A stretch of DNA of 64,000 bases from Paraspadella gotoi (Eukaryota; Animalia; Chaetognatha), in NCBI GenBank assembly GCA_051294375.1, contig CM119264.1:22717826-22781825 (forward strand), given 5' to 3'. The translations under genes were made by a program, and so were the position numbers. Positions within the stretch are counted from its first letter, which is position 1; each line of letters starts with the position of its first letter. The notes beneath the pieces were generated by a model. The model ran no database searches and was not told the origin of the DNA. It saw only the letters and a program-made list of their open reading frames with translations. This document shows, piece by piece, positions 8,803-51,589 of this stretch.

Positions 8803-11800
8803 TTATTCGAGCTGCTTGTCCGAAAATCCCACAAAGATCCAGCGATCTTCTATGCAGGCGCCGACGCCACTGTTTCGACGTTGAAAAATTCCGGGATGAC
8901 CTTCTAAAACTGTAGATTCCACGTCGAAACAGCGTAGACCCAAAGTTAGGTTCTCCATCTGAAGTTTTTTTTTAATAAATGCGCTTTTTCTCAAATATCA
9001 TACATTTTTGAAAGTTCCTGATACTTGCAAAGTTTCTTGTGCCAAATTTAGTGGAAAAATGTTTTTATTGCGATTATGGTGGACTAAAATCCATCAACCA
9101 TTCATGAGCGGCCATTCTTCAGCAAGTCATTCGCCAAAGGTCGCCTCCCAACCCAAAGGTCCGGGGTTCTAGCCCGGTGGTCGCCTAGCAGTTAAGAGGG
9201 ACGGGGCGCTTAACCCCTCTGTAACACGGTGTTACAGCCTGATCCAAAGCTCAGGGACTGCTTATATTGAACGGTTCCGTCACTAACTCATAACAATTAT
9301 TACGGTCTCTTCATGATATTCGTTTTTTTCACTAAATTTTGCACAAGAAACTTTGTAGGTATCAGGAACTTTCAAAAATGTATGATTCTTCTGAGAGCTA
9401 AGAGTATCTTTTGAATAACACTACCTGTTTTAGATAGGACCATATATACTGCATTGAGGCACCGTTTGGGTGAACGTTTAAAAAGCAAGCCACAACGCCG
9501 ATTATGTGTGCAATTTTTCCGTCTAGTTTGGCAACCTTAGGTTCCGTAACAACAGTAGCTGCTGGTCCCTGAAAGGTAATTTAAAATGTATTATTTTTCA
9601 GTTGTAATTCCAAATTGGGGGAGAATAAAATAAACCTGCTCAACTATATCTTTTTGCTTGGATTCTTCAGAAGTCTCTTTAAATTTTTCATTTAAGAGGC
9701 TTGTCAACTTTTGCCGTAATTCATTCAATGCCGCGTCTTTTTCATCTGAATTTTCCTACACAGAAAGTACATTATATAAAATTATTATTTCGGAAAACTG
9801 ATGACTGACTGAGCCCATCTCGGCGTAATGATATCGATTGAGATTTCACTGTAAACCCGCACCTGTACGGTAATCTTCACAAACTCTTCGACTGTATTTT
9901 GCAAGGTCTTTATCTTTTCCGGAAATTCTTTTTCCAATTGCTTTTTATATTCTTCCGCCTCTTTCTTAGCCTCCGATTTTGCTCCCATAAGTTGATCTTT
10001 AAGACCTAATAAAAAACACCCAACGATCAACGTTATACTGATACTGGGCGGGTTTCAAAATCCAAGCAGTACCCATAATCATATTTTGCATCATTTTTCC
10101 CTCCTTCTCCTTAGCTTCCTTATATGCCTTGAATTCTGCTTTCAACAACTCGTTTTCGTTTTCGTAAGCGTCCACTTGACATTTAAGCTGATCGTTTTCC
10201 TCCTTGATGTTTGTCAATTCATTGCTTGCTGGCAATTCCGTTCGTCGGACTCTGAAGGAAAGGAATACATTTACACATTGTACGTTGCATCATTATTTCC
10301 CCTGGTCGAAACTGACTTTTTGGTCGGGGGCTGCGAGCTGGTAGTGTCTTTATCTCCCTCGTCACCGTCGCTCATTTCCATTTCGTCCTCGACGCGTTCC
10401 TTTAATACATCGTCAGAGTTTTTGGCTTTGAGTTCGTCGGCCAGCTTCTTCCATTCGGCGATATTTTTTCTCTGTGCCTATATAATAGATTATAAAACGA
10501 TTTTTTTTTTAGGATTTTACGGCAACTAGTAATATTTTATATAACAACCTTGGTGAAATGATCCCAGGACTTTTGAGCCTTGGCCTTGGTAAAAACGTCG
10601 ACAATCTGATCAAACTGCGATATGATGAGGTAGAGCTTTTGGCGTAGCATCTCCCGAGTGTGAACGACTTCTTCCTGATGATGGGCCTTTTCCTTCACCA
10701 GATTTCGTAGATAGGATTGTACTGACTGCGTAACAAAAGGTTGAAAACCACATTCAGTTTTAGATCGAATAGCCGCTCGAGTCATAATTGTAACTACCTT
10801 TTTAATTACGCCGAGAATAATATATATTAAAAAAAATGTATATAATTTTATTACAATAAATCAAGTTGTTTAAGAAATATGATTTTTAAAACTTGAATAT
10901 TCCAAAACAAAAAGGGAAAATTCAATTCTTGTCAAAAACTTCATAATCATTAACTTATCATTCATCTTATTTTTCAATAACTTTGTTCACTATACCTACG
11001 GATATTCAATACATTTCTTTATTTTTAATATGCTACAAAGAATGTAAAATATTTAGAAAAAAGAGATTAATCATAAAAAAAGCATTTTTTTAATGTCTCG
11101 CTTTGCTATGGAGTACTTCATTTAAAAAAAAATACTGCTCGTAGCTTAATTTTTATAAACTTTATTTTTTTAATAAACATAAATATTTATTTTACTTATA
11201 CCAAACTATTTTTAATAAATTTTAATTTACTTATAAAATTTGTTGATACAAAGTGGCGCGTTTTTTTGCACATGACTGTACTTGGCCGAAATAAGTGTTT
11301 TGCACATCTTTCACACTCGTGCAGTCACGTGATTATTTGGAAATAAGTGGCGGCGCAACACCTCGAACTCGTTGGTTCTTGTTCTTTCAACTATAAATAG
11401 CAGCAGAGAGATGCGAGCTTCTTAAGCACACCTGTCACTTTATAAAGACCTATAATTTACATACAAAAAACAACCTGTAGAAGTGTGTAAAAATTGTTGG
11501 CATTTCTTTTATTGACGTCGCCTCTTTCCAACCAGTTCAACAGGGTCTGGCAGCTTCTCGAGAATACATGAGCCCCACCTTCCCCTTTCAATTGTTCCGT
11601 CAAACTCGTGGCTTCGGCGTCCGAATAGTGGGAGGGGGGAGGTGGAGAGGGACCACGTGATGCCGTTTCGATTTCTCGTTGCCTGGAGAGTGGAATTCGT
11701 TTAAACTTCGAAATTTATAATTACTAGTTTTTCTTACCTGTGCCTCTCCTCGCGGGCCATTGCGCGTTGCAAGCATTCCCAGTCGTACTTGTCGTCTCTG

Positions 11801-13726: not shown

Positions 13727-14048
13727 TCCAAGAATTGCCCCCTTGGGCACCGAAGTATCGATTTGTCATTTTTAGTCAGTTTTTCGGTCACATTAATTTA
13801 TAACTTCATTTTAATAAAAAAATCGTTAAAATTAACAATTCACGTTATCTATACAGTTTACGTGTTTACTGGAACCCATGAAACAGGAAGAATTCAAATT
13901 AAGTAAAAACAGCAGTTGTATATGAGAAAACGTATATGAGAAAACACAATTTGAATAGGCAAACGAACTTAACTCGTCTCGGCTAGGCCTATAGAATAAA
14001 TTATAAAATATCTAATATGGTGGACTAAAATCCACCAACCGTTCATCA

Positions 14049-14121
14049 GCGGCCATTGGTGCCGGAGGCAAGTCATTCGCCTCCCAACCCAAGAGGTCCC
14101 GGGTTCTAGCCCGGTGGTCGC
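14049..14121 (+). pseudogene. tRNA-Gly(CCC)-derived module of the repeat; not a functional tRNA
   Basis: Acceptor stem GCGGCCA/TGGTCGC pairs fully (one G-U). T-arm CCGGG-TTCTAG-CCCGG is B-box-like. The anticodon loop CTCCCAA is present but the anticodon stem does not pair. Confidence 0.7.
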
Positions 14122-14124
14122 CTA

Positions 14125-14198
14125 GCAGTTAACAGGGACGGGGCGCTTAACCCGCCTGCAACACGGTGTTACAGCCTGATCCGAAGCTCAGGGACTGC
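14125..14198 (+). ncRNA. Putative type-P5 twister self-cleaving ribozyme
   Basis: P5 GCAGTT/GACTGC; GA then CGGG (T1); U^AA at 14148/14149; CCC (P2); GC (T2); P3 CTGCAACA/TGTTACAG; P4 CCTGA/TCAGG with loop TCCG-AA-GC, which complements both T1 and T2. P1 and P2 are very short. Confidence 0.75.
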
Positions 14199-14424
14199 TT
14201 ATATTGAATGGTTCTGTCACTAACACATAACAATAATACTGTCTCTTCACTAAAATATATTTTCTGCAAAAAATAAAGAATGTTCGCGAAAATGAAAAAA
14301 AGAGTTAAGAATCCATTGTGGTGGTATATTCACACCGACTCACATCCACCATAGGCATAGTTCAGCCTATACCATTGGCTCAGAGGGGGAACATACCATC
14401 CCAAGTGTTACGTTCCATCCACAG

Positions 14425-17347: not shown

Positions 17348-20300
17348 ATGGCCTTGAAAGGAGCCGGATGGCGCCGACGAACCTCTTCGTCCAAATTCAA
17401 AAAATAAAAGAGGACGCCACCAAAGAAAGGAAAGCGAACGGCGGAAATTCCTTGACAGGAATCTCTAAAATCCCCGAAGAGTTTCTGGGTGGGAAAAAAT
17501 AATAAAAGACGCCCACCTACCGGTTGAGGAACATGACAAAGAGGAAGCCAAAGGAAAAGAAATGGGGAAAGATGAAGAAATTAAAGACGGGACTGCTGGA
17601 GATGTGGGTGACGAGGACGACGATAGCTTTGTCGATGCAAGCGAAGATGGAAGCATCCCTGATGAGGATGAGAAGGTTTGAAGATTTAAAAGATGATGGC
17701 GGAGGCGGGGGAGCTGACGCTGAGAAAAAATCAAACTCAAATAATAACGCTGACGCAGAGGAGAACGACGGAGAAGAGATGGCGCCCGTATCAAAGGAGA
17801 AGATGAAAAACAAAAAGTTGAAGACGCCGAAAGAGATCCGCGTCGTTTGGATAAAAACGACGAGATGGTGGATTCCAAACCCATCTTGTATAGCGGACGC
17901 GGGCTGGTTATTGTCACAAAAAATATACTCAAGCACCCTAGACCTAATTTCCTTTCGTTCCTAAATATGGACGATATCATGTCGTGTTTCCTGATTTTTA
18001 CATTATGCCTTGGAAGCGGTGAGTTTGATATTTATTTTGATTTTCATTTTAAAAGTGCTAAAATTAGGATTTATAACGTTATTTTTGGTCACTACTGGTT
18101 CGGATATTTAAAAAAAAGAAAAGAAAATCTGGTTAATATACGTTTACTGGTGATGGTCGAAAAAATTAGTAAAAAACTTATATTGTACTGTTATTTTCTT
18201 TCTTTTTTGTTGTGTAGTAAATATTATAGAAAGATGAAGATGAAGAGTCGAAACATGTACTTTTCTTTACGAAGTAAATCGTTGAAATAAAATTCCAAAA
18301 TTTTTTCTAGTAAAAAATTAAAATTACTAAATTGTATAATTTTCATAGACATTTTAAACAAAAATTAATACATTTTTCTGCGCTAAGTTTTGTTTTTAAA
18401 TATAACTTTTGGTCCCAACATAGCCTATTTATAAAATTTACAGGACATGAAGAATCGCTCTCATATTTTGCAAAATGTCAAATTGACGGGTGAAAAAAAC
18501 GTTCCAAACACAAAGCACAATGATTTTCTGTTTTTAAACGGTCGTGAACAACTTCATCCGAACGTGGAACCTGAAAATAGGGTCAGAATAAAATTCCTGA
18601 TGGCTTTGATATTGTTGGTATTGGTAAATTGTTGACTATTGGTAAATATTTCAGGTTCAACAAAAGCAAGTCATTCCGCCTGTTGATGAGATTCTTCGCC
18701 CACCATTTCATTCTCATCTAATTATGAAAAAAGCTGAGCAAGAAAGGGCGATTTTTCCCGTACGGCCTTCAATTAACTTCCACCATCCACGTTTAAAACA
18801 TTCTGCCGATTGTTATTCTTGCTCACCTGAATATGATGAGTGAAACTTTATCCTGATAAATTATTTTCAATTCTCAGTAGCCCTAAAATGACAATTTTAA
18901 AAAAACTAAGTAAAGAATGTTTTCAATTGAAACAGAATTTGTCTCTTAAAATTAACTTACCATGTAGGAAAGTGAATTTGACTCATAAAAGGTTTAATTA
19001 AAGTCAAGGAAAATAACCGAAATATTTGAAAGAAAAAAATACTTATTAAAAAAAATTATTACCTAATTACTCTAACCATATACCCTTTTAAACCTAACTA
19101 CCCATAACCCTAAACCACCCTTCCCTAAACCCCCTTAACCCCAGTCGACGAAAGTAAAATTAAAAAATATATATTGCAAATTTATAATATGAACAATATA
19201 AAATAAATTTATTTTGATTATTCTCAGGTAATAAAATTGTATTGTTGAAACTAACGATATTATCATTATGATAATTATGAATATTGAATAGGTTTATCTT
19301 AATACTTAGTATAGCTTTTTATTTGATAACCTATGAATGTCTCTTTAAAAGTTTTACTAGTTTATTTACATTCTAATACTCTTATTTAAAAGCAATCTAT
19401 CTTCATACTGGGAGAGTAAAATTTAATTAAAACCAGTTTGAACAAACAATGTCGGANNNNNNNNNNGAACCTCTCTCGTCCAAATTCAAAAAATAAAAGA
19501 GGACGCCACCAAAGAAAAGGAAAGCGAACGGCGGAAATTCCTTGACAGGATCTCTAAAATCCCCGAAGAGTTTCTGGGTGGAGAAAAAATAATAAAAGAC
19601 GCCCACCTACCGGTTGAGGAACATGACAAAGAGGAAGCCAAAGGAAAAGAAATGGGGAAAGATGAAGAAATTAAAGACGGGACTGCTGGAGATGTGGGTG
19701 ACGAGGACGACGATAGCTTTGTCGATGCAAGCGAAGATGGAAGCATCCCTGATGAGGATGAGAAGGTTGAAGATTTAAAAGATGATGGCGGAGGCGGGGG
19801 AGCTGACGCTGAGAAAAAATCAAACTCAAATAATAACGCTGACGCAGAGGAGAACGACGGAGAAGAGATGGCGCCCGTATCAAAGGAAGAAGATGAAAAA
19901 CAAAAAGTTGAAGACGCCGAAAGAGATCCGCGTCGTTTGGATAAAAACGACGACATGGTGGATTCCAAACCCATCTTGTATAGCGGACGCGGGGCTGGTT
20001 ATTGTCACAAAAATATACTCAAGCACCCTAGACCTAATTTGCCTTTCGTTCCTAAATATGGACGATATCATGTCGTGTTTCCTGATTTTTACATTATGCC
20101 TTGGAAGCAGGTGAGTTTGATATTTATTTTGATTTTCATTTTAAAAGTGCTAAAATTAGGATTTATAACGTTATTTTTGGTCACTACTGGTTCGGATATT
20201 TAAAAAAAATAAAGGAAAAAGGAAGAAAATCTGGTTAATATACGGTTATATGGTGTTGGTCGAAAAAATTAGTAAAAAACTTATATTGTACTGTTATTTC

Positions 20301-21677
20301 TTTTCTTTTCGTGTGTAGTAAATATTATTAAAAGAAGATGAAGAGTCGAAACATGTACTTTTCTTTACGAAGTAAATCGTTGAAATAAAATTCCAAATTT
20401 TTCTTAGTAAAAAATTAAAATTACTAAATTTGTATAATTTTCAATGGACATTTTAACAAAATTAATCATTTTTCTGCCGCTAAGTTTGTTTTTAAATATA
20501 AACTTCGACTGTGAGAATTTCTATTGATTTTGGCCAAGGAATTGGCCAGTAACAATGAAACTGGCAATAGAAGGGACACGGAGGAGATATAAAAGAGATA
20601 TTCATTGATATGTAAAAATTAAATCTTTCCGATAATCCTTTTTCCTATAAGATTACTAAAGAAAAAAAAGAAAATAGTCAAAAATTGTTGAATTGCAAAA
20701 TGAGTACAAAAGTTTGAGCATACGCGATTCACATGTACGCAGTTTGAACCAGAGTGAGGCGTCTCATTTAAAAAAAAGAGCTTCAACTGAAAAAGCGAAG
20801 CAAATAGAACGAAACAATATTTTTCAACTCGTCGACTAAGGATAAAAGTAGAACGTCGGACAAACAATCTTTTAGCTTTCCACTAATGCTGCGTAAATCA
20901 TTAATTTACAGGCATCGCCACGCCCCCGTCCTCAAAATTTTAAAGATAGAATAGAAAGAATTTCAAGGATGACTAAAGGCGCGACGAGAAAAAAAAAACT
21001 GGTCTTAACATTCTGCCCCCCCGCCCCACCCTCTTTCTCGGAAAACTAGAACTTGACCGAGACGGAACGGCACGTTGCGGCGGGACGGAAGCGGGAGCAG
21101 GCGACACGGGCCGACGCTAAGAATTAGTGACTTTCTTGAAATTACTATCAATTATGCCATTGGAAGGCCCAATGAACTTTTCGCCTTTTTTCCTCTTTTT
21201 AAATGTTTTCTCGTTCGATTCGACGGGACGAAGGCGACAAAGGTCGAACGCCTCTTCACCGTTTTTTTGAGGCTCAAAAAAATTTCGAAAATTTTTTTTA
21301 CTGTTTTGCACGAGATGTAAAGAAAGAGGACGTTGGATCTTTTTTTTTTGCAAAAGAGGGATTTGATCATAGTTTTTGGGACACGGTTTGACGAAAACGT
21401 CTAGTTAGCAATCCTCTGCTGAATTGGATTTAAACTGGCCGCCGCAGTTTTGTAGGGAGCCGAACAGCTTCAAGATCTGGGACGGGTGGCGCGACGAGGA
21501 AATATCAATGACGAGGCTTGTGTATTCTGGCGATTTTATGTTATTTAGGTACCACCGGCCGGAAGAGGAATTTAAAAAAAAACTAAATCAGAGGTATGAA
21601 TGAAGGAAGGAGAAATGAAAGGCTTCGTGTTTAGCTACCGGATTAGCATCAACAAAATAGTAAAACATTATAATTGA
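17348..21677 (+). CDS. Uncharacterised acidic (D/E/K-rich) protein; first exon present twice (17348-18018 and 19467-20110)
   Basis: Merging the two copies gives MALKGAGWRRRTSLVQIQKIKEDAT...YHVVFPDFYIMPWKQ|GTGAG. Candidate downstream exons at 20912-~20978 and ~21456-21677, ending TGA. The gene model is tentative. Confidence 0.45.
17379..20504 (+). repeat. ~1 kb near-identical direct duplication (17379-18405 vs 19467-20504) across a 10-N gap
   Basis: The copies differ mostly by 1-bp indels, and the second copy begins exactly at the gap edge. Confidence 0.9.
19060..19160 (+). repeat. Second copy of the telomere-like repeat element
   Basis: ACCTAATTACTCTAACC...CCCTAAACC...CAGTCGACGAAAGTAAAA parallels 12583-12676. 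Confidence 0.6.
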
Positions 21678-31800: not shown

Positions 31801-33486
31801 ATTGTAGATAAATTTGAAAACTGGAAGTGACTTTTTATAATAAGATTCTAAATCTCGTTTGTTCCAAGTGATATCTTCATGGTATGGTGGACTAAAATCC
31901 ACCAACCGTTGCATCAGCGTTTATCAATAATTACTGTCTCTTCATTGGTGAGCCCGACTTCCGAACACAACAGCAACAACAACACTTTCAGGCGACCATG
32001 CCTCAACCTGGCGATTGCACTTTCCGCCCACAAACACATCAGGCGACATGCCTCAACTTGGTGACGCACTTTCACCAACAACAACATTCACTGAGAGACG
32101 AAACAGACATCTTCCTATGGGAGGGGGGGATGTATGGTGGACTAAAACCCACCAACCGTTCATCAGCGGCCATTGGTGCGGAGGCGAGTCATTCGCCTCC
32201 CAACCCAAAGGTCCGGGGTTCTAGCCCGGTGGTCGTCTGGCAGTTAAGAGGACGGGGCGCTTAACCCGCCTGTACATGGTGTTACGCCTGATCCGGAAGC
32301 TCAGGGACTGCTTATATTGAACGGTTCTGTCATTAACATATATCAATAATCACTGTCTGCTTATTGGTGAGCCCGACTTCGAACACAACAGCAACAACAA
32401 CACTTTCAGGCGTACATGTTATTATTATTATATATTATTATATATATATACCTAATTTGATACATAATTGGTGTAATTTCTTTCGTTCGTGTTATTGATA
32501 AGTTTTAGATGCAAAGTTTTTAATTGCTTAAAAACCAATGGTAAATGTTGAAACAACAATTTGGACTTGTTTCGGCTCTAAAAATAATTGATATACACAA
32601 TTACACACAATTACCATGTATATTTTTTAGAATGTAATTAGCCACACTTCTCTTTAATAAGATATTTATTTTTCTTTTTGTTTCCTTACGATATGTATTA
32701 TAATTTTGTAAAATTTAATTATACTTACTTATTGATTTTACGTAATGGGAGTGTCCCTGTAGCCGTTGTGTGGTGGATTTCCTTCTTCATCTTTTTTGAA
32801 GTTTTATGTTGGGAGTCATGAAGTTGTGATAATGATTTTTTATGAAAACCCTGCTCATTTTCCTCAAGTAATTCAAAAGGTATCATCGAATCTTGTACGG
32901 GAAACGATGCATTCTTCTTCAAATTTAGGTTGTCAGCAGTATCAGAAGAAAAACTTTGTATTGCAGTTTGGTTTAGAGGCACTTGATTGGAAGGCACCTA
33001 TATTTTAACAAATATGATTAATTAGCGTTTTTTTAATAGGTCACGAAACCACAAAAAACTACAAAACCAGGGATTTCTCTCTCTCTCTCCTCAAAAAAAG
33101 CAAAATATTCTTAATCTCCCCAATCTAATTAATTTGCTTAATTTGTCATCTTTATGGGTTTTTTCAAACATTTTAAATTTTAATTGCCGTTATAGACTTT
33201 TATTACATAGAATTGTGCATTTTGTTAATGTTTTCCTTATNNNNNNNNNNTGTCTCTTCAAAAGTAAAACTACTTTAATTCTTCTTAACCAGATCCTTCA
33301 TAAAAGTATATTTTTGTTTCATACCTGATTTATACTATTGTACTCCAGTGGTGGCGGTGTGTCCGATTCGGGAATGTGTATCAAGGTCTTGTCAAGAAGC
33401 AAGCCAGTGTTTTGGGATAATTCAATAACGGGGGAAGACAAAGGGCGCATTTTCATTTGATGGCAAAGAATCTTAACTCCCTCCAT
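28900..33486 (-). CDS. HMG20-like HMG-box protein with matrin/U1-type C2H2 zinc finger and coiled coil, multi-exon
   Basis: Exons ~31574-31687 and ~31322-31494 splice to the HMG box NAPKAPRSAYQIFL...ITNEIVRQIGTEWSSLP...AEEDKQRYLRELADFLRSEPY. Then CLICNQIFSTSHNKKEHLLGRGH (30385-30455) and a C-terminal coiled coil (29280-29480). First exon 33325-33486 joins 32997 in frame. Confidence 0.8.
30568..31184. mobile_element. Tc1/mariner-type MITE with ~52-bp TIRs and TA target duplication
   Basis: TA|CATGGTGACAATTTTAAA...TTTGCAAACC and GGTTTGCAAA...TTTAAAATTGTCACCAGG|TA around a very AT-rich interior. Confidence 0.85.
31883..32418 (+). mobile_element. Tandem pair of the tRNA-like/twister repeat (copy 3 internally deleted, copy 4 full) with a shared 3' extension
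   Basis: Units start at 31883 and 32133 (TATGGTGGACTAAAA). Copy 4 has the tRNA module from 32166 and the twister fold at 32240-32311. Both continue TTGGTGAGCCCGACTT...CAACAACACTTTCAGGCG. Confidence 0.85.
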
Positions 33487-34255: not shown

Positions 34256-37200
34256 ATGGCTTCCATAAAAGATTGGATTGCTAATGGAAAGAAGAACGGG
34301 GTCTCTGAACAGGTAACCAGTTAAAGATTTAGGTATCCCAAACTACTAATGTAAAAATAAAAAATCTAATTTATTTTGAGTATTTTTTTTCTGGAAAAGA
34401 AAGGAAAGACAACAATTTAATAGTATTAGAATACTGACGTAGTAATATTCTTATTAAGGTACAGCTGTACTTTTTGAAATTTTTGAAAGTAATTTATCAC
34501 AATATTTTTTTTCAAGGATGATTTAAACATATCTTCCGATTCTGATGATGATCTCCCTAAACCGAAAGTGAAATCTATGGATGGCTCCAAAGCCAACAAG
34601 CGACTATCAGTCGAGAGAATATATCAGAAGAAATCACAACTGGAACATATTCTTCTCAGGTAAAACATATGATTTAGTTTGGCATAAAAATATTTTAAAC
34701 TAAAGTTTTTTATTTGAATTTCTCACATTTATATGAAATTTGTACAACCGATATATAATTTTTATAATTTTATATTGGTTGTACCAATTTCATATTATAA
34801 TATATACAGAAGGCTTTATATTTATAAAATGAGGTACCCCTTTTTTGTGACCAGAACACGTTCCGAGAAAATTACCTGGACCAAATTCATTGAAATTTGG
34901 CATGAATTATCCGTATGTGAATACAAATAGAACTATCGAGACGAATTTAATATTTGACCCCTGAGCCGAGATATGAGCCCCCGGAGGTGTCACCGATAGG
35001 AGCAAAAATGGTCAAATTTTCTTTAATTTTTATTGTCGCAATCCTTAGCGTTTGCGTTTGCGGCGTTCCAAATTATAGATCGCCTTATGATTAAATTTGG
35101 GATTAAATTTTGGACAGTTATTAGGTATGTTTTGTTTGTTTTATCAAAACAAACAAATTTTCTCTTTTATTTTTATATTTTCTTTCTCTCTCTCTTTTCT
35201 CTTTTAATTATCGTCTCTCTCCCTCTCTCTTTTCCCTAGTCACTGATTCATAGAGATAAAAAACCGAGTCTGCTGCTGGCTCTGCAGGGCTTATTCTTTT
35301 CTCTTTTCTCCTGCTGCTTCTGCTGCTGACTTTTGAGTCTGCAGCTGGCTCTGCAGGGGCTCTCTCTTTTCTCCTGCTGCTTCTGCTGCTGCCTTTTGAT
35401 TTTCTTTCTTTTTCTCTCTCTCTCTCTCTCACGTGGTCACTTTCTATCGGCTATTGCCGAGCACACGGCATCATCAGGCCATCTGTTTAGAGAGACTGAC
35501 TGTCTTGTGCTGTCCCATGACTAAACTGGTTTTCAAGAGGTATTAGAGAGGCAATTTACATCAAAGCCCTCGAGCCCTCTCTGAACCGTGATGGAGGACG
35601 ATTCGAACTCCCACCAAGCTATTATTCGCTTATCAAAATGGTGGGTGAATGACCAGAACCACCCCAACCGCACAATGATTCCCCTGTCCCTACTCAACGG
35701 GCCAGGCGGAAGCCTCTCAGCAGGCAATGGACGTCCGATACCTCTCTCCAGCTTGTAGCAACTCGGTACGACTCTCCTCGCACCGAGCGTCGCCCAAAAC
35801 GATGGCTGCAGGAGGAGGTAGAGGAGTCTGTGTCTCCTGTAGCAAAACGGGCAAAAACAGGCAACCGCCTGCCTCACCGTCAGGTGAGAGGAGGGCTGTC
35901 GGCAGGCAGACCCCAGTATGTCGCACTCCACAGCTATATCCTCTCAACCTATGACAGACCAATGACCCGATCTTATCGTCAACGTCCTCCATTTGCCCAG
36001 CCGCGGGGGGCCAGCTCATTTTGAGCACTTTCTTTTACTTACTTTCACTAACTCTTTACTTACCTATCCCTCACCACTTATTCTTCAATTTCACTTCATT
36101 TTACTATTTTATTTTTCATTGTTGTTAATAGTACTAATACTTAGTTAATCTTTAAGTTTACTTATTTATTCTTATTTTCTCTGTTGTACATTGCTAAATG
36201 TATTAAATTTTATTTGTCTCTCTCTCTCTCTTTTCATTTTTCACAATCTTACTTCTCCTTCCCCTGTCCTTACCTTGAACTGTCCTTACATCTGACCACT
36301 ATCTCTTACTCAATTCTTTGTTGGAATCTCTCTCTCTCTCACTAACTCAACTTTCACAGAGAAAAACATGCCGAGTAAATCGATGTAAAAAGGAACCGTG
36401 AATAGGCTTCGAATATTACAACAATCAATCAATCATTCAATCAATCAAACCAAATAAGTAAAGATAAACAAAGACAAAACTTTTTTTTGAATGCAAAACA
36501 ATGTCAATACAACAGAAAATAGCATTAATTCTCATAATTCCCGCTACAAGGGCGCAAATCAGTCACAATCACCTTCTTAGCCGCGTAATCCGTCTTCCGG
36601 ACTCGGAGCGCGAAGTCCGCACGGGGTTTTTTCTTGGGTGCTTTTTTTCTCTTTGACGTTGGAAGCCTTCGGCGCGTTTCGGAGCTTGGGGCCCTTGGTC
36701 TTCACCTTGGGGGTATTGCGGCGCGCTTCTCTTGGCGGGTTTCGAGGAGCGCAATTCAGAATCCGAACGCGAGGATTCGTCCGAGAACCGCAAGGTCTTC
36801 TTCGCTTTGTTCTTCTCTGACAAGGAAGAGAAGGGAGGAAGTGGGAGAAGAAAGTTGATTGAGAATTAGCTACAGTATGTTAAACAAACATTCAAAGATC
36901 AACTGAAATAAAAGACTATTGAGAAAAAAAAAGTTACGTTACCTGGCCAAGGACGCGGCTATTAATGGCCGTAAACGGCAATCTAATAACTACTGGCGGA
37001 GTAATTTTTCTTGGGCGGCGTCGAAAAGAGCGTCCATATCTCTCTGCCTCTGTTGGGTCGTCTTTTCTTAGACTGCAACATCGTCGAGGTCGTTGCCGTC
37101 TTTCGTCGTCAGAAGAGTTCCCGGAAAAATGCAAAGCTTGGGCTTCTTCGTATTCATTTGAGACCCTTGGGAGGACCAGCTTTCGTTTTCTACGAAAGAA

Positions 37201-40200
37201 ATGCGAATAAAAATGACACGTAAAGGGTAAAATTTTAGAAATAGTTTAACAGGACGCACCTTGACTTCCGGGTTTAGGCTGCTCCTTCTTCCCCCGCTTT
37301 GGCCCGTTTGCAGGAGAAAGGGGGCAGATCGTCAGGTCTGATTCGCACAGAGAGGTTCGATGCGAGGAGGGGAACCAATTTGCTGATATATTTAAAAAAT
37401 AATTTTTTTTATAGTATCCGAATAACCAAAACGACGGAACTATTGTGCCTATTCTTGGCCGGCTTATTGTTTAACTCTGGGAAGTTCCTTTTGCCTCCGA
37501 TCGCTGGCGACCCGTTTTTACACGAGACTGCAGACGGCGGGCCTCCCGCTTAGGGGCGCCGCTTGGACCGGAAGAAGATTTGTCCTGCTAGGCGCTGTGC
37601 TTCGGCCGCGTGGGATTGGCTGACTGAAAGGTGTAGTATCGTCTGGCGCCTCTTCGTCTTCTAGAGTCGGTCTCGCCCAAGCGGGTGCTTAGAAAGGAGG
37701 GGAGGGGAAGAAATAAGAACTGACTGGCTGCCCTATCTTAAACTATTCTTACTTTTCACACAATATTACGTCACGTCTTTTTTCTCTCTTCTTCTTGTGG
37801 CGTGGTCTTGGAGGATCCGCGTATCTCTCGCTTTTCTTGTGTCGGCTTCTTCTTCTTCTTCTTCTCGTCAGAGAGGCCGAGAGGCGATCCGCTGAGTCTT
37901 CTGAAGTGTTCATGCGACTCGTTGTGGCCATGATTCTTCTTCGTCCACTTCCGGCCCTAGCAACGTCTTTGCCCTTTGCTTGCACGCTTGTGCGGCTCCT
38001 TCTTTCGCGCAACTGGAAAAGAATCAGTTTTTTTATAAATACTTTTTCTACATGCAGACTTTCAAAAAAGACTAATAAAAAATTGCTAATTTTGACAATT
38101 CTCTTATGAAATAACCTCCTACTTTTCTTTTTTGAGCTTCTTCTCCATACATTTCAGCGGCGATCGTTGGGCGCAATACGCCGCGCCGATCGGCGACGGT
38201 TTCGTGTCTCGCACAGCGCGCTGCGGAAGAGAATCGATTTTAGAAATCGGTTGGATTCGATCAAATTCGAGAATAAGTTCACCCGTGAAAAAAAGTTCTT
38301 CGGGGCCCTTCCACCCTTCGTCGCTCTTTTTTTTTTCTTCCGCCCGGTGAGGCTTGCGAACTCCGCAGCGTCGCTCTTCCTCCTCCACCTCGTTAATTTG
38401 GTCGCCAAAGTGTCCAGGTCGTCGGTCCAAGAGATCCGATAGGAAAAGTAAAGTGGATAGCTGATTGAAATTACACTTACTCTAAAACGAAGAAGTTCCT
38501 ACCTTGGAGTTTTGGGCCTTGAGCGCGGGCGAGTTCAGCGCTTTTTGGAATCCGGCGCTGTTGGCAACAGTTTTTGCGCCTTCCTGTTCGCTTTGGTGAG
38601 ATTCCACATTTGCATGCGTCGTCATTCAGATAATCATAGTCAGATGCGCAAACTTTAATCGTCCTCTTTCTTGTCAGGTTCGTTTCCAGATTCTTCCTGC
38701 GTCGAAAAAACGTACACGTGAACACAAATAATAATAACAAGTAAAAATAATTAACTGAGCGGCGGAAAGTCGAAGCTCCGTTTTTTGCTGCGAACTTCCA
38801 CTTCTTGACCGGGTCCCGGATCGTAGCCACCGAGGCAACCAGTGTGTCAATGCATCTTTTGACGAGCCTTGTATTTCTAAATATGTGTAGGTCAAAATAT
38901 CAGGATTAGGCCATACCATCGTTCCACTTTCCAATATGACATATACAAATTGAGAAAGAAAAACAAAGTTTATGTTTTGTTTACAAAAAAGCGAGTTTTA
39001 TTTTTTAAACGGACATGTCCTCGACTCTTTTTTCCAGTCTTTCAGCGCAATGTGAACATATAAAATTTTTGCCAAATGTTTATGATGGAGAGAGAGAGAG
39101 AGAGAGAGAAAACAAAGAATTGAGTAAAGGATAGTGTTGACGGGTGAAGACAGCTGAAGGTTGTAAGGACATTTGAGAATAAGTAGTAAGTACAATAGTA
39201 GTAGTAGTAGTTAGTAGTAGTAGTAGTACACAATAGTATTGAAAAAACTATAAATAACGAATAAATTTAAAATTAAATAAGTATAATTTAAATTTAAAAG
39301 TGTTTAAAGAGTGAAATAAAGTGGAGACATTAAGAGAAGAAAAAGTGAAAAATAAGATAAACCAGTCTCGCTGCAACCAAAATAACGAGTTTTTTCCCTT
39401 CTCGATTTTTCTCCAGATGAATGCTGGCCTGATTGCTAAGTTTGGAGACACTCGCGCGTCAACTCCCCCTCCATGTAAGCCTTTCGTTTGTGGTAAAAAT
39501 TGAGGCGAACCTTCGTGAGAATTCTCTAGAGGATAATGTCGGGGCGAAATCGTACTTGACGATCTCGTGGTTGCCGGTTGAAACAGCAACCATGGAATTG
39601 GCACGTTACAAAGGAAGATTGAACTCGGGAAAAACTAACTCGGTAAAATAATGAATTTAATTTTTGCTAAAATGGCATAATTCGCTTTCCAAATTCCAAA
39701 AACAGAGCGCTTGTGCATGCCTTCGGCTTCGCTCGTACAATTTGTGCCCTTGACATGGTGACGACGAATTTGACCGTCGTAATCTGTGTGATACTTCTTT
39801 GTAGTCGTTGAGGACGGGCTTGAATGCTTGCTCCGTCCCGTGCACCATAGGCCTCGGATTACGTTCTCTTTGTAATTCTGAGTCGCGAGCTCGAGATGGG
39901 GAGCTCGATGATTTCCGACCGGTAGAAATGGAAGATTCATTCCTCTACGACGGCAGATTTTCTGCCCGTTCACCAAGGTAAGAACTGAGGGGGGAAAAGC
40001 ACGTTTAAGGTCAAGATCGCAAGAAGCGAAAAATAATTCCAACTCACTTTCCGCCGATGAATTCAAAGGACCCTGAAAAATTTTTGAAGAAGGGCGTCAT
40101 TGGCTTCGGGTTCTTCGTCCCGAATCATCCTCCGTAGGTTAGAGATGATCTGCGGATCGTAGTTGGGGACTACGGTGCTCCATCGGTGCGCTGATCGCCT

Positions 40201-43200
40201 GCAGAGCGCCGTTCACCCAGTAACCATCGGATGGACAGGAACGTAATAGCGTGGCTCCACAGCCATGTTATGCGTCGCGGATGTATTCTAAGAGTGGGTC
40301 GGTCCTGATTAAAATAATTTTTTTCATGAAACGAGTAAAAAACATCGAAATTATTTAATAATATCGGTAGACTCAGCCTTTGGATGAAAGATAAGCCTCG
40401 TGAGCGACTCATGTGGGTGAAGATGTAACGCGGAGAGGCGGGCGTCTTTGCCGCCGTGTAAACGCGCGTTCCGAACTGACCGCGGCAGGGAAGGCCAGGC
40501 AAGTTGGATATTGTTCGTCCTAACCAAAGTTTGCGGCCATGTTGGATGATGGTGGTCTTAATGGACATTTCGGCCCGTGATGATAAGCCCGAACTTTTCG
40601 CACAGAACCTTGAACAAAGAGTTGAAAGGAAAAAAAATAAAAAAAATTTGCTGAATTCAAACATTTTCGAGACGAAATCTAATTCTTTCCGTAACGGCCA
40701 CGCGCCAATTGAGCACTTTAGCTCCTTGGTTATATTCCTTCTTGATGCAGGTGAAAGACGCTTGCGTTGACCCGGTTTAAATCCGTCGATGGCCGACGGT
40801 AGAGATCTTTCGTTGTCAGAGGTGGAGAATTGAATCAGTTCCTTGGGTTAGGAATTTAAAATAGAATTTCGTAATAACAAGAGAGAATGAGCCCTCCCCT
40901 GATCACAAAATCCCACGAACCCGATTGATAAATTCCGAGAATGTGATCTGAGTTGTTCCTTTTTCATAAAGATAAACGTCGCCCAATCCCATGTCCTTCC
41001 GTCGCGTTCGTTCCTTGAAGTTGTTGGGTGAAAAGGATCCGATTAGACGACAGGAGGAGAAATTATTTCACAGCGCGGAAAAAAAATACCTGCATGAAGT
41101 TGGACAACCATTCCTTTCTTTCGTTAACCTTAAACTTTGAAAAGGCAAGCGGTTATGGCAGAGTCGTCTTCGGCACCAGTGTACTGAATCGGATGGTTCA
41201 TATTTTTAGAGAAAATATAGCTTCTTGAGAGGAACATCCCCACTCCCCCGCCGCCACACAGCCCTGGTTTAGTGGGAATCCCACAATCCAAACCTGAACG
41301 GGATGCGATGGCGTTTCATGTCGGAAAAGTATCTTTCGCTTCTTTAGATGTGCTGGTAGCCCAAACCTAAGGAGAAACCGAAAAAAAAAAGAATTTAAAG
41401 CTCTTAATATAAATATATTTTAGTGAAGAAGCAAGAGCATCTCGCCCGTCACCTTTATAGTACTTGGCCTTCCAAGAAGTCCAGTTGTGGGTGTTTGTCT
41501 TCCACTCCTCGAACTCGGGGAGCGAATAAAAGCAAATTTCTTCTTTCCCTTTGGATACCTTTTAATGGCACATGATTGTGAATTTTAACTTCTACGATTT
41601 AAAACGATTATAAACGACTTCAGTGCATTACCTTTACAATTGGTTGATAAACTCTTCCACGAAATTATATTTTAGTAAATTTGGCCAATGTGGTGGATAA
41701 AATTGATGACTAAACCCTAAAAAAAAAGAATATTCTTACAACGATCTCAACAAATTAACAGCACCTCAACGGGTACAACCTAAAGCAATACTCATGAAAA
41801 ACCTGTAAGCCACCTAAATCATTACATTTTTAAAAGAGACCATCAAATAATAAAGACCTTTATGTGAGATCCGTCGTGATCTTGATCGCCATGATCATGA
41901 TCTTGCCGTAACGCAGAGTTTTCATATCTGCGGGGTTCTCGTATTTTTTCCATAATTGAGGCCGATGATTTTGCAGAGGTTGGATATTTCTGCGTTGTCC
42001 ATCACCTGGAAAGTGAAGACCAACTTTTTCAAAAGCTGAATTTTTAGAAAATAAAGCTAGATTCGTGATGATGTCGATCGGCTACTGGCCTGCTTGTGCG
42101 TGGCCTCTCGCACGTTAAGCAGTTTGCCCTTGAGCGGGAAAACGCCGTAACGATCGCGTCCGATGATTCCAAGCCCTGCGACGGCCAAGGCCTTAGCGAG
42201 TCTCCCTCCGTGAGAATCAGCGTGCAGTCACCGGAGTTCTTAGTTCCGGCGTCGTTGGCGTCGTCCAGCTTTGGAATTCCTGCGAAGAAGACGTAATAAA
42301 AGGCGAAAATAAAAAGTCATTATATTTTTGTAAGCAGTTGTGAATATAGTTCACCTTTGAGCTTTTGAATGCTTAGCGCCTGATGCAGTTTTCTGGAGCT
42401 GCGTTTGCTGTTTGAACCGCATCCACTGCATAATTCCCTCGACGATTCCACACTTCGCTACAGAGTTGGTGAACTTCTCGGACATCACGCATTTCGAGCC
42501 GAAGCTCTTCACTGAACATTTAACAATAAAGAAAATATTGTAAAAATAAAGTATCGAATTAATAAGTCTGGATTAGACAATAGACATCCTGCTTTTCAAT
42601 CAATCCGAGGAGCGATGAAAAAAATTATATTCAGATAAAAAAAAAAACAAACTAATTAACATTGCATTGCACAACTCGAACCTGTAGAGTCATGTTTTCT
42701 TTCGTTTGGGAATCGAATGTTGGGTTAACGATCTGACAATTAATGAAGACCCACATGTGATTTTTGATCTGAAAGGGCTTAATGTTGATGTTAGATCCTT
42801 TCTTTTCTTTTTTCTTGACAACTTCGACAAGCTGCTTGCCAAGAAGCTCAGTCACGTGATCCACGTGACGCCCTCCCTTTGTCGTAGCATGCTGGTAAAA
42901 ATATCAATGACGAGAAATACTTTTAATAAAATAAAACTTTTTAATTCTTTTAGTTTTAATCAATTTTAATCCAGCAAAACCTGTTAACAAAGCTGACTTG
43001 CTGAAATCCCTTGTCGGATGCAGCACATGCCACGTGCCACCGAGGGCCGCATTGCTCGTACACGATGCTCAAGCTTTTTCCGTCCTCATCTTTGTACGTC
43101 TTTGTGTAAAGGTTAACGTAATCCTGAAAAATAATCGCGGACAAGTTTAATGGGGGAAAAAATTAAATAGAATCATAAATAATTAATCATCATCTTTGAC

Positions 43201-46200
43201 CCTTCATCATCTTGGACCAAGCATCATCTTGGACCAATGCCATCATCATGGTAAAACCAACCCATTTCAATATTCGCGTTTTAAATAACCACACTGACAT
43301 TTTTTTCTGCTGCACTAACTACTTGAAACACCTTGAAAGTCTTTAAGTTAATCTTCTTGCGTTGAGGAAAACGGCGAGTCCGGGCGTCGTTCCGGCGACG
43401 TCATAAGCGCGGCGAGACAGAAGAGCGACGGTGTCGGCATCCAGCGTCGCCATTTTGAATTTGGGGAGATCGGGGAGAAGGAGATACAAGTGAAGTCTTC
43501 CTTGCCTAGAAAAAGTAAAGAAAAATTAGAAAGAATAAGGAAAAACACTAATAATAAATAAAGAACCTTTATAGTCGGGTAATCTTGGGTTGCTGGGCTT
43601 TGGTCATGTTCTTGCCCACGACTGGCGAAAAAACTTGTTGCCTTGCTCTTTACACTGCGTCTCTACAGTGAACTTGGTGCTAAAGATGTTAGCCAACTTG
43701 GCGCCGTAGCCGTTGCGGCCGCCAGTGACTTTTTCCTCTTCGTCATTATAATTGCTCGACGTCAACAGGTGCCCGAAAATCATCGTTGCCACGAACATCT
43801 GTTGGGAACAACTCGGATAAACATATCGCACTTTTGTTTTGAGGTAGAATTTTGTTTGTTTCTTATTTCGGTGATGGTACAATGAAAATACAATTAAGTG
43901 GATATCCGAGACCCTTTAAAATAAGGAACAGAGGAGAGGCATCATGATATCAAGAAAGATTTTCAATAAAACCAATAAATTATTAACTCATCAACGACGT
44001 CACAAACCAAGCCAGAGATCAAGCGTATTGAAGGTATAGAAAACGGACAAAAATAGGAAAAATGCCTATATTAACAAGGAGAAATACATTTGCTGATTTT
44101 CGCTTTTACCCAAGCTAAAATTAAAATTAAGAATTATCAATGAGTTTTGACATCTCAAAATTTAAAGAATGATAAATTGTTAAATCCGTCTTGACTTTCA
44201 GGCAAAGCCATACCTTCTCATCCTTGTGCTCGACTACAGGATTCCTTTGCCATTGTTCCAAACTTTGATCTCGTTCGCCTCTGGATTGATAGTTATCTTG
44301 ATGCAGCTCATCGAAGGATCGCGGACTTTGTTATCGGCCGCATTGACCAGAATTTCTCAAAGATTTTGTATAATCCGGCACGAACGTTATTTCCCGCTGA
44401 AAGCAAAACAAAATTTCTCTTCCAATATATAATAAACAATAGTAACCATCAATCATTAATTATACACTAAAACAAAATATCAAGCTGATTTAATTACCTG
44501 CACCATCGATTCAGAGGTGTCGTCAAAAACCCATTGTTTCTCGGTAACAGTCTCTACACTTCCGATGTATGAATCAGCGGTCTAGATTTTAAACATAACA
44601 GCACAAAAATTAATTTAAAATAAATATATGAAATTGGTACAACCAATATAATATATTATATAATATATTATTCATATATTATAATATAATATATATATAA
44701 TATATACAGAAGGCTTCATATTATAAAAATGAGGTACCCCTTTTTTGTGACCAAAATCTGTTCCCACCAAACTACGATCGAATTTCATGAAATTTTAACA
44801 TATAGAGTCTTAATGACGATATAAATGGAACTATCGAAGCAAATTTTGATATTCAACCCTGACAAGAGATACAGGGCCCTGGGTTGGACCCCTGGGCGGC
44901 CAAAAAAGGCAAAACATTTTTTTTCGCCATTTTTTCAAATTATTTAGTAGCATCAGGTGCATTAACGTTTTAAACATATAAAAACATAATTTAGAACTAA
45001 AAATTGATAAATTTTCAATAAATAAGCTTGTTTGAAGATGCATGGTTCATCGTTTTACTTTACATTTTCCCAAATTATTACAAATCTAACTTGAACTGCT
45101 TGTGATCATGAAGCTGAAAGTTAGGTAAACAAATATTTTTGTGGTAATAATATGTTTTTTGTGGAAGAGTAAACGTCTGTGCATCTGTTCAAAATAAAAA
45201 TAATTTAAAAAATTTAATAAAGAATCGCATAAAAAAACCGGGATTAAAAATTGAGAAAGAAAATTAATCTATAAACAGAAAGAAAAATTATATTTTATAA
45301 ATTTAGGAAAAAAGTTAATTTGGATTGTAGCAACAAATTTTTGACAGATAAGTCAGACATTTTTTGACTCTTAAGTTTTAGAGCTCTTTCTCAGCGAGTG
45401 ATTTTACAAAAANNNNNNNNNNNNNNNNNNNNNNNNNGTCAAAAATTTGTTGCTACAATCCAAATAAACTTTTTTCCAAAATTTATAAAATATAATTTTT
45501 CTTTCTGTTTCACGGTTCCTTTTTACATCGATTTAATCCTTATGCTTTTTAAAATTTTTTAAATTATTTTTATTTTGAACAGATGCACAGACGTTTACTC
45601 TTCCACAAAACATATTATATACCACAAAAATATTTGTTTACCTTAACTTTCAGCTTCATGATCACAAGCAGTTCAAGTTAGATTTGTAATAATTTGGGAA
45701 AATTGAAAGTAAAACGATGAACCATGCATCTTCAAACAAGCTTATTATTGAAAATTTATCAATTTTAGTTCTAAATTATGTTTTATATGTTTAAAACGTT
45801 AATGCACCTGATGCTACTAAATAATTTTAAAAAATGGAAAAAAAATGTTTTGCCTTTTTTGGCCGCCCAGGGGTCCAACCCCAGGGCCCTGTATCTCTTG
45901 TCAGGGGTTGAATATCAAAATTTGCTTCGATAGTTCCATTTATATCGTCATTAAGACTCTATATGTAAAATTTCATGAAATTCGATCGGTAGTTTGGTGG
46001 AACAGATTTTGGTCACAAAAAAGGGGTACCTCATTTTATAATATGAAGCCTTCTGTATATATTATATAATATATTATATTATAATATATGAAATAATATA
46101 TTATATAATATATTATTGGTTGTACCAATTTCATATATTTATTTAAATTAATTTTTGTGCTGTTATGTTTTAAAATCTAGACCGGATTCATACATCGGAA

Positions 46201-49200: not shown

Positions 49201-51476
49201 ACAATCATGTGCCATTAAAAGGTATCCAAAGGGAAAGAAGAAATTTGCTTTTATTCGCTCCCCGAGTTCGAGGAGTGGAAGACAAACACCCACAACTGGA
49301 CTTCTTGGAAGGCCAAGTACTATAAAGGTGACGGGCGAGATGCTCTTGCTTCTTCACTAAAATATATTTATATTAAGAGGCTTTAAATTCTTTTTTTTTT
49401 TCGGTTTCTCCTTAGGTTTGGGTACCAGCACATCTAAAGAAGCGAAAGAATACTTTTCCGACATGAAACGCCATCGCATCCCGTTCAGGTTTGGATTGTG
49501 GGATTCCCACTAAACCAGGGCTGTGTGGCGGCGGGGGGAGTGGGGATGTTCCTTCCAAGAAGCTAATATTTTCTCTAAAAATATGAACCATCCGATTCAG
49601 GTACACTGGTGCCGAAGACGACTCTGCCATAACGCTTGCCTTTTCAAAGTTTAAGGTTAACGAAAGAAAGGAATGGTTGTCCAACTTCATGCAGGTATTT
49701 TTTTTCCGCGCTGTGAAATAATTTCTCCTCCTGTCGTCTAATCGGATCCTTTTCACCCAACAACTTCAAGGAACGAACGCGACGGAAGGACATGGGATTG
49801 GGCGACGTTTATCTTTATGGAAAAGGAACAACTCAGATCACATTCTCGGAATTTATCAATCGGGTTCGTGGGATTTTGTTGATCAGGGGGGGCTCATTCT
49901 CTCTTGTTATTACGAAATTCTATTTTAAATGTCACTAACCCAAGGAACTGATTCAATTCTCCACCTCTGACAACGAAAGATCTCTACCGTCGGCCATCGA
50001 CGGATTTAAACCGGGTCAACGCAAGGTCCTTTTCACCTGCATCAAGAGGAATATAACCAAGGAGCTCAAAGTTGCTCAATTGGCGGGTGGGTTACGAAAG
50101 AATTAGATTCGTCTCGAAAAATGTTTGAATTGCAAATTTTTTAATTTTTTTTTCCTTTCAACTCTTTGTTTCAAGGTTCCGTTGCGGAAAAGTCGGCTTA
50201 TCATCACGGCGAAATGTCATTAATGACCACCATCATCAACATGGCGCAAAACTTTGTTGGGACGAACAATATCAACTTGCTGGTTCCCTGCGGTCAGTTC
50301 GGAACGCGGTTACACGGCGGCAAAGACGCCGCCTCTCCGCGTTACATCTTCACCCACATGAGTCCGCTCACGAGGCTTATCTTTCATCCAAAGGTGAGTT
50401 ACCGATAATTATAAATAATTCATGTTTTTTATGTTTCATAAAAAAAATTATTTAATCAGGACGACCCACTCTTAGAATACATCCGCGACGATAACATGCT
50501 TGTGGAGCCACGCTATTACGTTCCTGTCATCCCGATGGTACTGGTGAACGGCGCTGAGGGCATCGGCACCGGATGGAGCACCCGTGTCCCCAACTACGAT
50601 CCGCGCCAGATCATCTCTAACCTACGGAGGATGATTCGGGACGAAGAACCCGAGCCAATGACGCCCTTCTTCAAAAATTTTCAGGGGTCCTTTGAATTCA
50701 TCGGCGGAAAGTGAGTTGGAATTATTTTTCGCTTTGCGATTTGACTCTTAAACGTGGCTTTTCCCCCCTCAGTTCTTACCTGGTGAACGGAGAAATCTCC
50801 GTCGTAGAGGAAGAATCTTCCATTTCTAAGGTGGAAATCATCGAGCTCCCCATTCGAGTCTGGACTCAGAATTACAAAGAGAACGTAATCGAGCCTATGG
50901 TGCACGGGACGGAGAAGATCAAGCCCGTCCTCAACGACTACAAAGAGTATCACACAGATACGACGGTCAAATTCGTCGTCACCATGTCAAGGGACAAATT
51001 GTACGAGGCCGAAGCCGAAGGCATGCACAAGGTCTGTTTGGAATTTGGAAAGGAATATGCCATTAGCAAAAATTAAATTCATATTTTTTACCGAGTTTAG
51101 TTTTTCCGAGTTCAATCTTCCTTGACGTGCAATTCCATGGTGCTGTTCAACCGCAACCACGAGATCGTCAAGTACGATTCGCCCGACATTATCCTTAGAG
51201 AATTCTACGAGGTTCGCCTCAATTTTTACCACAAACGAAAGGCTTACATGGAGGGGGAGTTGACGGCCGAGTGTCTCAAACTTAGCAATCAGGCCAGATT
51301 CATCCTGGAGAAAATCGAAGGAAAACTCGTTATTGGTGAGCGAGACTGGTTTATCTTATTTTTCACTTTTTCTTCTCTTAATGTCTCACTATTTCACTCT
51401 TTAAACACTTTTAATTTAAATTATACTTATTTAATTTTAAATTTCGTTATTTTAGTTTTTCAATTTACTATTGTTG

Positions 51477-51511
<35 letters not shown>

Positions 51512-51589
51512 TTGTACTACTACTTATTCTCAAATGTCCTTACTACCTTCAGCTGTCTTCACCCTCAACACTATCCTTTACTCAATTCT

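Follow-up and report, generated by a model that had tools for sequence, protein, structure and literature searches.

The window analysed here, a stretch of 64 kb of Paraspadella gotoi DNA to which all positions refer, contains intron-split eukaryotic F-box, RRM and TOP2 genes and, among them, copies of a short dispersed repeat. A TOP2 piece reached ~110 bits with the 2-alpha and 2-beta chains, more than the 80–97 bits with the remaining topoisomerase 2 entries. The first-pass annotation had counted four copies; the repeat is real and three copies are full length (83–92% alike in pairwise comparison), but the one at 31883–31944 is a 62-bp remnant of an internal deletion, without the tRNA part and without the twister. 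That annotation lacked the PBS, the polypurine tract and the 4-bp duplications listed here, and the two copies starting at 31883 and 32133 together bound a single element.

9075–9313, + strand, solo LTR copy 1, decayed at T1/T2 and in the A box, with a TSD matching at 3/4 letters (CGAT/TGAT)
14012–14015, + strand, left 4-bp TSD of copy 2 (CTAA), repeated at 14250–14253 with a 4/4 match
14016–14249, + strand, solo LTR copy 2, 234 bp, starting with TA and ending with CA, delimited by copy alignment and loose contig ends
31883–31944, + strand, 5' LTR of a two-LTR element with an internal deletion, its first ~37 and last ~23 bases kept
31945–32132, + strand, non-coding interior of 188 bp with two ~50-bp repeats and hairpins
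31946–31958, + strand, PBS of the tRNA-Trp type, 1 base behind the 5' LTR
32119–32130, + strand, polypurine tract of 12 purines, 2 bases before the 3' LTR
32133–32363, + strand, 3' LTR (copy 4), full length with single-base indels
32364–32418, + strand, second PBS (32365–32377) and start of a second interior, together a partial tandem unit

Every copy is oriented to the + strand, opposite to the neighbouring RRM and F-box exons (− strand), but a strand bias cannot be claimed from three insertions. The single-base indels of copy 4 are possibly read errors.

Copy 2 was compared with the contigs of four of nine public sequencing runs, that is, with assembled contigs and not with raw reads, and matched 7105, 14004, 2594 and 891 contigs, respectively. 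Summed depth peaked at ~1.3 million against ~35–40 in the flanks in one run (X1), and at 4.8 million against 238 in another (X4). Since summed contig depth is no copy count and is usable as an order of magnitude only, we give the copy number of the LTR repeat in the same way, as probably of the order of 10^4, that is, tens of thousands of copies in the genome. Loose contig ends pile up before position 14016 in all four runs (169, 195, 129 and 39 per run), and at the 3' side loose ends run through the final letters of the element into AT-rich flank, again in four runs; both ends of the LTR are therefore sharp. Majority flank letters read ATAT on both sides in two of the four runs, a weak signal with an agreement of 0.39–0.67.

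With the element ends fixed beforehand, the perfect 4-bp duplication around copy 2 has a chance of 0.007 given the local flanks, and the three matching letters around copy 1 a chance of 0.069, the mismatch there being a C to T change at a CpG. Duplication lengths of 2–3 and 5–8 bp fitted worse than 4 bp at both solo LTRs (n = 2). Copy 1 is itself inserted into the centre of a hairpin-shaped, MITE-like element, whose 63-bp inverted arms at 8997–9059 and 9324–9386 are 94% alike.

At 31883–32418 the layout is LTR – PBS – 188-bp interior – polypurine tract – LTR, from which an intact two-LTR element would measure 656 bp (234+188+234). Together with the T that precedes it, the PBS agrees at 13 of 14 letters with the starts of Gypsy-32-I_NVi and Helenus-2_SyJa-I, both of which are paired with tRNA-Trp-CCA in Fig S2 of PMC10886601; the comparison is with this published tRNA-Trp site. 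A purine run such as the one before the 3' LTR precedes a fraction of 0.00055 of all window positions. The window has one full interior and one truncated one, the latter being the 56 bases behind the 3' LTR, which are 95% like 31945–32000. Its two ~50-bp repeats, small hairpins and CAA-rich spacers (31988–32090) possibly form a packaging signal. This is the single two-LTR locus in the window, and with its 5' LTR deleted and its array truncated it has no flanking TSD.

Because a PBS, a polypurine tract and 4-bp duplications are present, we read the repeat as an LTR, most likely that of a tiny, gene-less, non-autonomous and probably Gypsy-dependent TRIM of the Helenus type, a class assignment that is well supported at the level of sequence. 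The earlier label of a 'twister SINE' does not survive this, as the element is devoid of a tail or long TSD and combines sharp ends and 4-bp TSDs with a PBS, a polypurine tract and an LTR–interior–LTR order. The wider proposal, a mobile RNA of Pol III type that carries a twister-like module, stands as far as the sequence allows, and the alternative name 'retrozyme' came close. Three outer features of the LTR precede this module in copy 2.

14018–14037, + strand, 5' hairpin in the U3-like part of the LTR
14038–14045, + strand, 5' strand of an 8-bp helix with 14205–14212, around the tRNA part and the twister
14049–14121, + strand, tRNA-derived module, predicted Pol III promoter

The 5' hairpin, already described for copy 2, was found in all four copies, and its surroundings (14016–14048) fold with a z-score of −3.44, with 1 of 200 shuffles as good. 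The proposed stem around the tRNA and the ribozyme was recovered in both the MFE and the centroid structure, and the majority letter at 14209 (C in the run data) gives a G–C pair in this outer helix. The tRNA-like module, which is preceded by 33 bases of LTR, was also borne out, with a 7-bp acceptor stem and a T arm kept, a fold z-score of −2.99 (1 of 200 shuffles as good), an A-box-like word at 14057–14068 and a B-box-like word at 14102–14112 (GGTTC at 14102). Its anticodon arm is broken, and the tRNA-Gly label rests on a CCC triplet inside that arm. ARAGORN made no tRNA call, and Rfam returned neither tRNA nor twister at E ≤ 10 for stretches of 89–271 bases.

Directly behind the tRNA-like module, copy 2 shows the elements of a type-P5 twister in the order and at the coordinates first claimed.

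14125–14198, + strand, predicted type-P5 twister without P1
14125–14130 and 14193–14198, + strand, P5 strands
14134–14136 and 14151–14153, + strand, P2 strands
14137–14138, + strand, G14137 and A14138
14139–14141 and 14181–14183, + strand, T1 strands
14148^14149, + strand, predicted cut site
14154–14155 and 14186–14187, + strand, T2 strands
14156–14174, + strand, P3
14175–14192, + strand, P4

A twister descriptor that allowed all three permutations, and was written after the sequence had been seen, was run on 40,000 dinucleotide shuffles of the LTR, both strands included. It matched 27 of them, 8 as type P5, and in none were P4 and P5 as long as in the LTR. It also matched three loose background places in the window, two of which are one duplicated locus. 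Copy 2 alone among the three full copies passed the descriptor: in copy 1, whose P3 is perfect, CT replaces the T2 GC and T1 carries a G>A change, and the core elements of copy 4 are shifted by single-base indels. Natural type-P5 twisters were then taken from viral contigs (46 and 64 stretches), and an independent model was built from seven P3-bearing phage P5 twisters, without any window sequence. Across 64 kb and both strands, this model placed the three full copies at ranks 1–3 of seven matches, copy 2 first and copy 4 third, with scores of 16.3, 15.2 and 12.0 bits and rough E-values of 0.12, 0.19 and 0.87; scaled to one 234-base element, the best E-value is ~0.0004. The three copies are not independent of one another.

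Majority letters in the four runs leave the catalytic G and A, A2, both pseudoknots and the L4 adenines intact. Copy 2 has this full set as well; in copy 1 it is lost, and in copy 4 it is shifted. Two letters of copy 2, C14133 and C14159, are minority letters in the runs, and the majority restores P3. T1 is CGG/CCG, changed on both sides relative to Schistosoma with pairing kept; the Schistosoma twister has GAGGG/UCCC pairs (GGG/CCC) in Table 1 of PMC8501958. P4 has 5 bp with a pairing probability of 0.89–0.91, and P5 has 6–7 bp with a probability of 0.72–1.0. A 3-nt P2 strand was present in 72 of 104 parsed natural stretches and is therefore normal for type-P5 twisters. In the large-scale twister tests reported in the accessible parts of PMC11662667 and PMC5113685, defects of P1 and P2 were tolerated and changes in the pseudoknots or catalytic residues were not, and the corresponding part of PMC5408937 describes deletion of P1 with activity kept. 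The predicted twister-P5 layout of the LTR exceeds chance, and descent of the module from a twister seems very probable. Self-cleavage by the predicted fold would have about even odds, and cleavage at a useful level seems slightly more probable than not.

Next, the element was compared with published systems. Helenus elements (TRIMp3) are TRIMs that carry tRNA-like LTR sequence, a PBS, a polypurine tract and, in animal families, 4-bp TSDs, and their mobilisation is attributed to Gypsy in the sections of the describing paper at hand (Kojima 2024, PMC10886601). In those sections Helenus resembles the present element in being non-coding and shorter than 1 kb, in having boxes A and B in the LTR, in its PBS, polypurine tract and 4-bp TSD, and in the occurrence of solo LTRs and tandem arrays; an LTR starting with TA also has a precedent there, for example Helenus-3_TheEle (PMC10886601). 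The present element differs from the Helenus LTRs inspected in that its tRNA part lies near the 5' end of the LTR, with a twister-like fold rather than a T run behind it, and its rough copy number is far higher than the 5,575 LTRs of the largest family in the consulted parts of that publication (PMC10886601). These parts report a ribozyme in no Helenus, and in the main text ribozymes occur in one reference title only (PMC10886601).

Two LTRs from Synergus wasps in the DataS1 file of this paper, Helenus-2_SyJa and Helenus-2_SyUm, which represent the two Trp-primed families recognised there, nevertheless appear to carry a type III hammerhead directly behind the tRNA part when compared by eye with the hammerhead core. 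The order, again by eye, is GUC triplet, stem I, CUGAUGA core, stem II, GAAAC and stem III, and loops 1 and 2 of both LTRs are complementary over ~12 bases. In DataS1 the hammerhead core word occurs five times and, in the passages seen, is followed by the GAAAC half in two, both of them these wasp LTRs (PMC10886601). No canonical twister loop was found in the LTRs of that file with four loop words, a search from which line breaks can hide about a tenth. As far as the published sequences seen go, the wasp elements share with ours a tRNA-Trp PBS (13/14), a degenerate tRNA part followed by a ribozyme fold, and an LTR without T4; they differ in that theirs is a type III hammerhead and their interiors have T4 runs, and no sequence likeness beyond the PBS was noticed. 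A ribozyme fold in the same slot of a Trp-primed Helenus of another lineage raises the prior for a twister in the LTR studied here.

Plant LTR retrozymes, as presented in the portions of PMC4918200 consulted (Cervera 2016), likewise have a ribozyme in each LTR, a PBS, a polypurine tract, 4-bp TSDs, dependence on Gypsy, and solo, full and multimeric copies. They differ in their type III hammerhead, tRNA-Met priming and RNA of 600–1000 nt, and those portions describe no tRNA-like promoter (PMC4918200). Circular RNA has been shown for plant LTR retrozymes in the passages seen of PMC4918200, PMC7761336 and PMC7229834, whereas it is only predicted here. The definition of an LTR retrozyme includes a hammerhead in each LTR, where the present element has a twister-like fold instead; the element is retrozyme-like in its working if active, and lies outside the published definition.

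Our preferred reading, which we hold slightly more probable than its negation, is that the LTR belongs to a Gypsy-dependent, Helenus-type mini element whose twister excises a unit RNA, likely circularised and then copied in the manner of plant retrozymes. Pol III would start at the tRNA module of the 5' LTR and, because a T4 stop is missing on the + strand, would read through; T4 runs are lacking on this strand of both LTR and interior, as they are in 12% of shuffles of the 536-bp array, which is not significant. Cleavage in both LTRs would yield a monomer of ~422 nt without a terminal repeat. P5 and the outer 8-bp helix both enclose the cut, so that these helices would join and hold the 5' and 3' ends of the monomer, an arrangement that suits ligation, and a host RtcB-type ligase could close the RNA. 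A competing hairpin in the ribozyme core could stop the resulting circle from re-cutting. Host tRNA-Trp would prime the Gypsy reverse transcriptase on the circle, producing solo-LTR, full or multimeric cDNA, which the Gypsy integrase would insert with 4-bp duplications.

Separate steps of this scheme have precedents in the parts of the literature consulted. In plant LTR retrozymes both LTRs are cut, and the RNA is circularised and primed by a tRNA into solo, full and multimeric cDNA (PMC4918200), and RtcB closes the monomers of animal retrozymes in vitro (PMC7229834). The partial tandem unit at 32364–32418 agrees with the prediction of the circle model; tandem arrays also occur in LTR-11_DR, a Helenus family without a ribozyme reported in the text seen (PMC10886601). 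More broadly, and with somewhat less than even confidence, we suggest that animal LTR retrozymes exist, in that Trp-primed Pol III Helenus elements twice independently gained a ribozyme behind the tRNA promoter, a P1-less twister here and a type III hammerhead in the wasps, and spread through RNA circles copied by Gypsy.

The defects of the predicted ribozyme speak against our preferred reading and for a rival that we regard as unlikely, namely that this is an ordinary Helenus-type TRIM with a dead or permanently blocked twister relic, in which the ribozyme plays no role and Pol III transcripts keep a terminal repeat for normal strand transfer. The LTR evidence applies equally to such an element, and most published Helenus LTRs inspected lack a ribozyme core (DataS1 of PMC10886601, as far as seen). 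The weak points conceded at the outset, a vestigial P1 and a poor P2, were partly right: P1 is missing altogether and P2 pairing is weak, but the short P2 strand is normal in type P5, and the competing hairpin had been overlooked. The linker in place of P1 has 6 nt and forms at most one pair, and natural examples with a 3-nt P2 and at least two P2 pairs had a P1 of 5–13 bp in 69 of 69 cases. P2 of the LTR has two pairs plus a C–A, or three pairs with a bulge; natural P2 had 3/3 pairs in 66 of 72, and in the three natural cases with two pairs the missing pair is at the opposite end from that of the LTR.

The competing hairpin, 14139–14142 with 14151–14154, occupies a T1 strand and P2 with a probability of 0.94–0.96. 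Its margin over a nested fold compatible with the twister is 8.5 kcal/mol in copy 2 and 6.5 kcal/mol in copy 1. These energies leave out five G–C pseudoknot pairs and Mg2+, so the balance between hairpin and twister is uncertain. Also calculated without pseudoknot terms, the pairing probability of P2 is 0.00 in the LTR, whereas 98 natural twisters average 0.79, with 6 of them below 0.1. The T1-breaking variant G14183A reaches 3–13% of depth in the four runs, like or above other CpG sites, and is thus not depleted, as a relic would have it. Contigs of the same runs show no visible two-sided covariation within the LTR family; the three commonest stem variants (14118, 14121 and 14124) keep their pairs, which at 3/3 is not significant (about 1 in 8).

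Speaking against a relic, all residues to which cleavage is reported to be sensitive are intact in the majority letters and the defects are confined to elements reported as tolerant, where random loss of residues would be expected. Moreover, the T run behind the tRNA part, present in many of the Helenus LTRs inspected, is missing both here and in the hammerhead-bearing wasp LTRs.

That the twister likeness is coincidental, UAA, GC and AAGC standing in this order by accident in the structured 3' part of a Helenus LTR, we consider improbable. The Rfam search proposed in the first-pass annotation speaks for it, as the repeat gave no match at E ≤ 10 while natural controls matched; the scan does work, since the natural P5 controls gave 22 twister-P5 matches in 15 of 20 loci submitted. 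Over the window and three sub-stretches, Rfam reported neither twister nor hammerhead, and its miRNA and snoRNA matches are microsatellite or chance. In the same direction point the E-value of only 0.12 for the window under the phage-built model, on which natural members score 26–84 bits (92 matches), far above the 12–16 bits of the LTR copies, as well as the loose background matches of the descriptor and the fold z-scores of the twister region in the three copies (−0.41, −1.97 and +0.46). Coincidence is opposed by the shuffles, of which 27 in 40,000 match and none equally well, by the top three ranks that the copies take under an independent model, by the complementarity of both pseudoknots, and by the presence of another ribozyme class in the same slot of a Trp-primed Helenus.

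Searches beyond the window gave no exact match of the LTR motif in viral contigs (0) and three in metagenome contigs, none related. A relaxed twister core pattern matched four times in viral contigs, none of them in Rfam, and the three that were parsed lack P2 or P4 pairing. HDV-like and twister-sister readings of the fold were rejected by eye against the layouts of those ribozymes.

Compared with known twisters, the fold shares with type P5 (Rfam RF02684; phage examples L004–L112) the order P2'-GA-T1'-UAA-P2-GC-(P3)-P4, the U-T1-AAGC loop, the 3-nt P2 strand and an optional P3. It differs from them in having no P1 hairpin, a weaker P2, T1 of CGG/CCG and not GGG/CCC, a strong closing P5 and a score below Rfam detection. 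The Perere-3 twister of Schistosoma mansoni, in the part of PMC8501958 seen, is also found on an animal retroelement with P3 and a degenerate P1, but it is of type P1, lies at the 5' end of an autonomous RTE non-LTR element, which it frees from upstream RNA, and is associated with neither tRNA nor LTR. Among the phage contigs, seven (L053, L063, L097, L098, L100, L106 and L107) carry 2–5 type-P5 twisters each within 0.5–1.7 kb, often just upstream of ribosome-binding-like sequence, mostly with a 3-bp P2 and with clear covariation.

An active twister could also cut mainly in the 3' LTR as a substitute for a Pol III terminator, leaving a linear RNA with a terminal repeat of ~100 nt and no circle, which we think quite improbable. 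The outer helix needs 14038–14045, which a transcript started at the tRNA contains only in the 3' LTR, and the predicted slow cleavage and the unit without T4 would fit as well. However, the predicted start lies upstream of P2, P5, T1 and T2, so that the full ribozyme is present in both LTRs, and the P5-type fold keeps the cut ends together, favouring ligation over release.

A Helentron-like DNA element, whose ends we take to resemble the 8-bp inverted repeat next to a terminal hairpin seen in the LTR repeat, was rejected by eye against the Helentron layout. This reading and that of a target-primed, tRNA-headed SINE or non-LTR retrozyme with a twister are together very improbable: the tRNA-like module and the tie of Schistosoma twisters to RTE elements (PMC8501958, as seen in part) speak for the latter, but 33 bases precede the tRNA part, a simple-repeat tail is lacking, the ends are sharp, the TSD is 4 bp, a PBS and a polypurine tract abut the repeat where LTR elements have them, and animal non-LTR retrozymes, in the consulted sections of PMC7761336 and PMC7229834, have no LTR, PBS or polypurine tract and have larger TSDs.

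Returning to the Helenus-type element with a cutting twister, its components are known singly: Helenus, LTR retrozymes and twister-bearing retroelements. What appears new is the combination of a tRNA promoter and a twister-like fold in the LTR of an animal TRIM. In the literature covered, partly as excerpts, we found no description of a twister in an LTR element or of a ribozyme in Helenus, and the ~1000 candidates in the supplement of PMC11662667 may include the motif. LTR retrozymes are placed in plants by the passages seen of PMC7761336, PMC7229834, PMC5680766, PMC6765202 and bioRxiv 10.64898/2026.07.22.740005; in the first two they are plant elements with hammerheads, and animal retrozymes are without LTR, PBS and polypurine tract. 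The part of PMC7761336 at hand also refers to truncated twisters on RTE elements, as unpublished data, and to insect elements with a type III hammerhead.

If the twister cuts, the element would link Helenus and LTR retrozymes as an animal counterpart of the plant retrozymes, ribozyme classes would be interchangeable within the LTR life cycle, and twisters would have a role beyond the trimming of non-LTR 5' ends. It would also hint at how a Pol III transcript without terminator or terminal repeat gets reverse-transcribed. If the full model is true, this would be the first case in which a twister makes the circle of a retroelement, and a P1-less P5 twister would occur in nature at tens of thousands of copies. 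The wasp LTRs of Helenus-2_SyJa and Helenus-2_SyUm would themselves be animal LTR retrozymes, and the sections seen of the paper that presents them are silent on the hammerhead (PMC10886601).

Additionally, two features of the assembly were observed in the window. A 9-kb inverted duplication of the TOP2 region (36401–54155, 93% alike), centred on an N run at 45413–45437 and with many frame-breaking indels in one arm, is probably a fold-back artefact of the assembly. Similarly, a 1-kb direct duplication (17379–18405 and 19467–20501, 95%) beside an N run at 19457–19466 is probably an assembly overlap.
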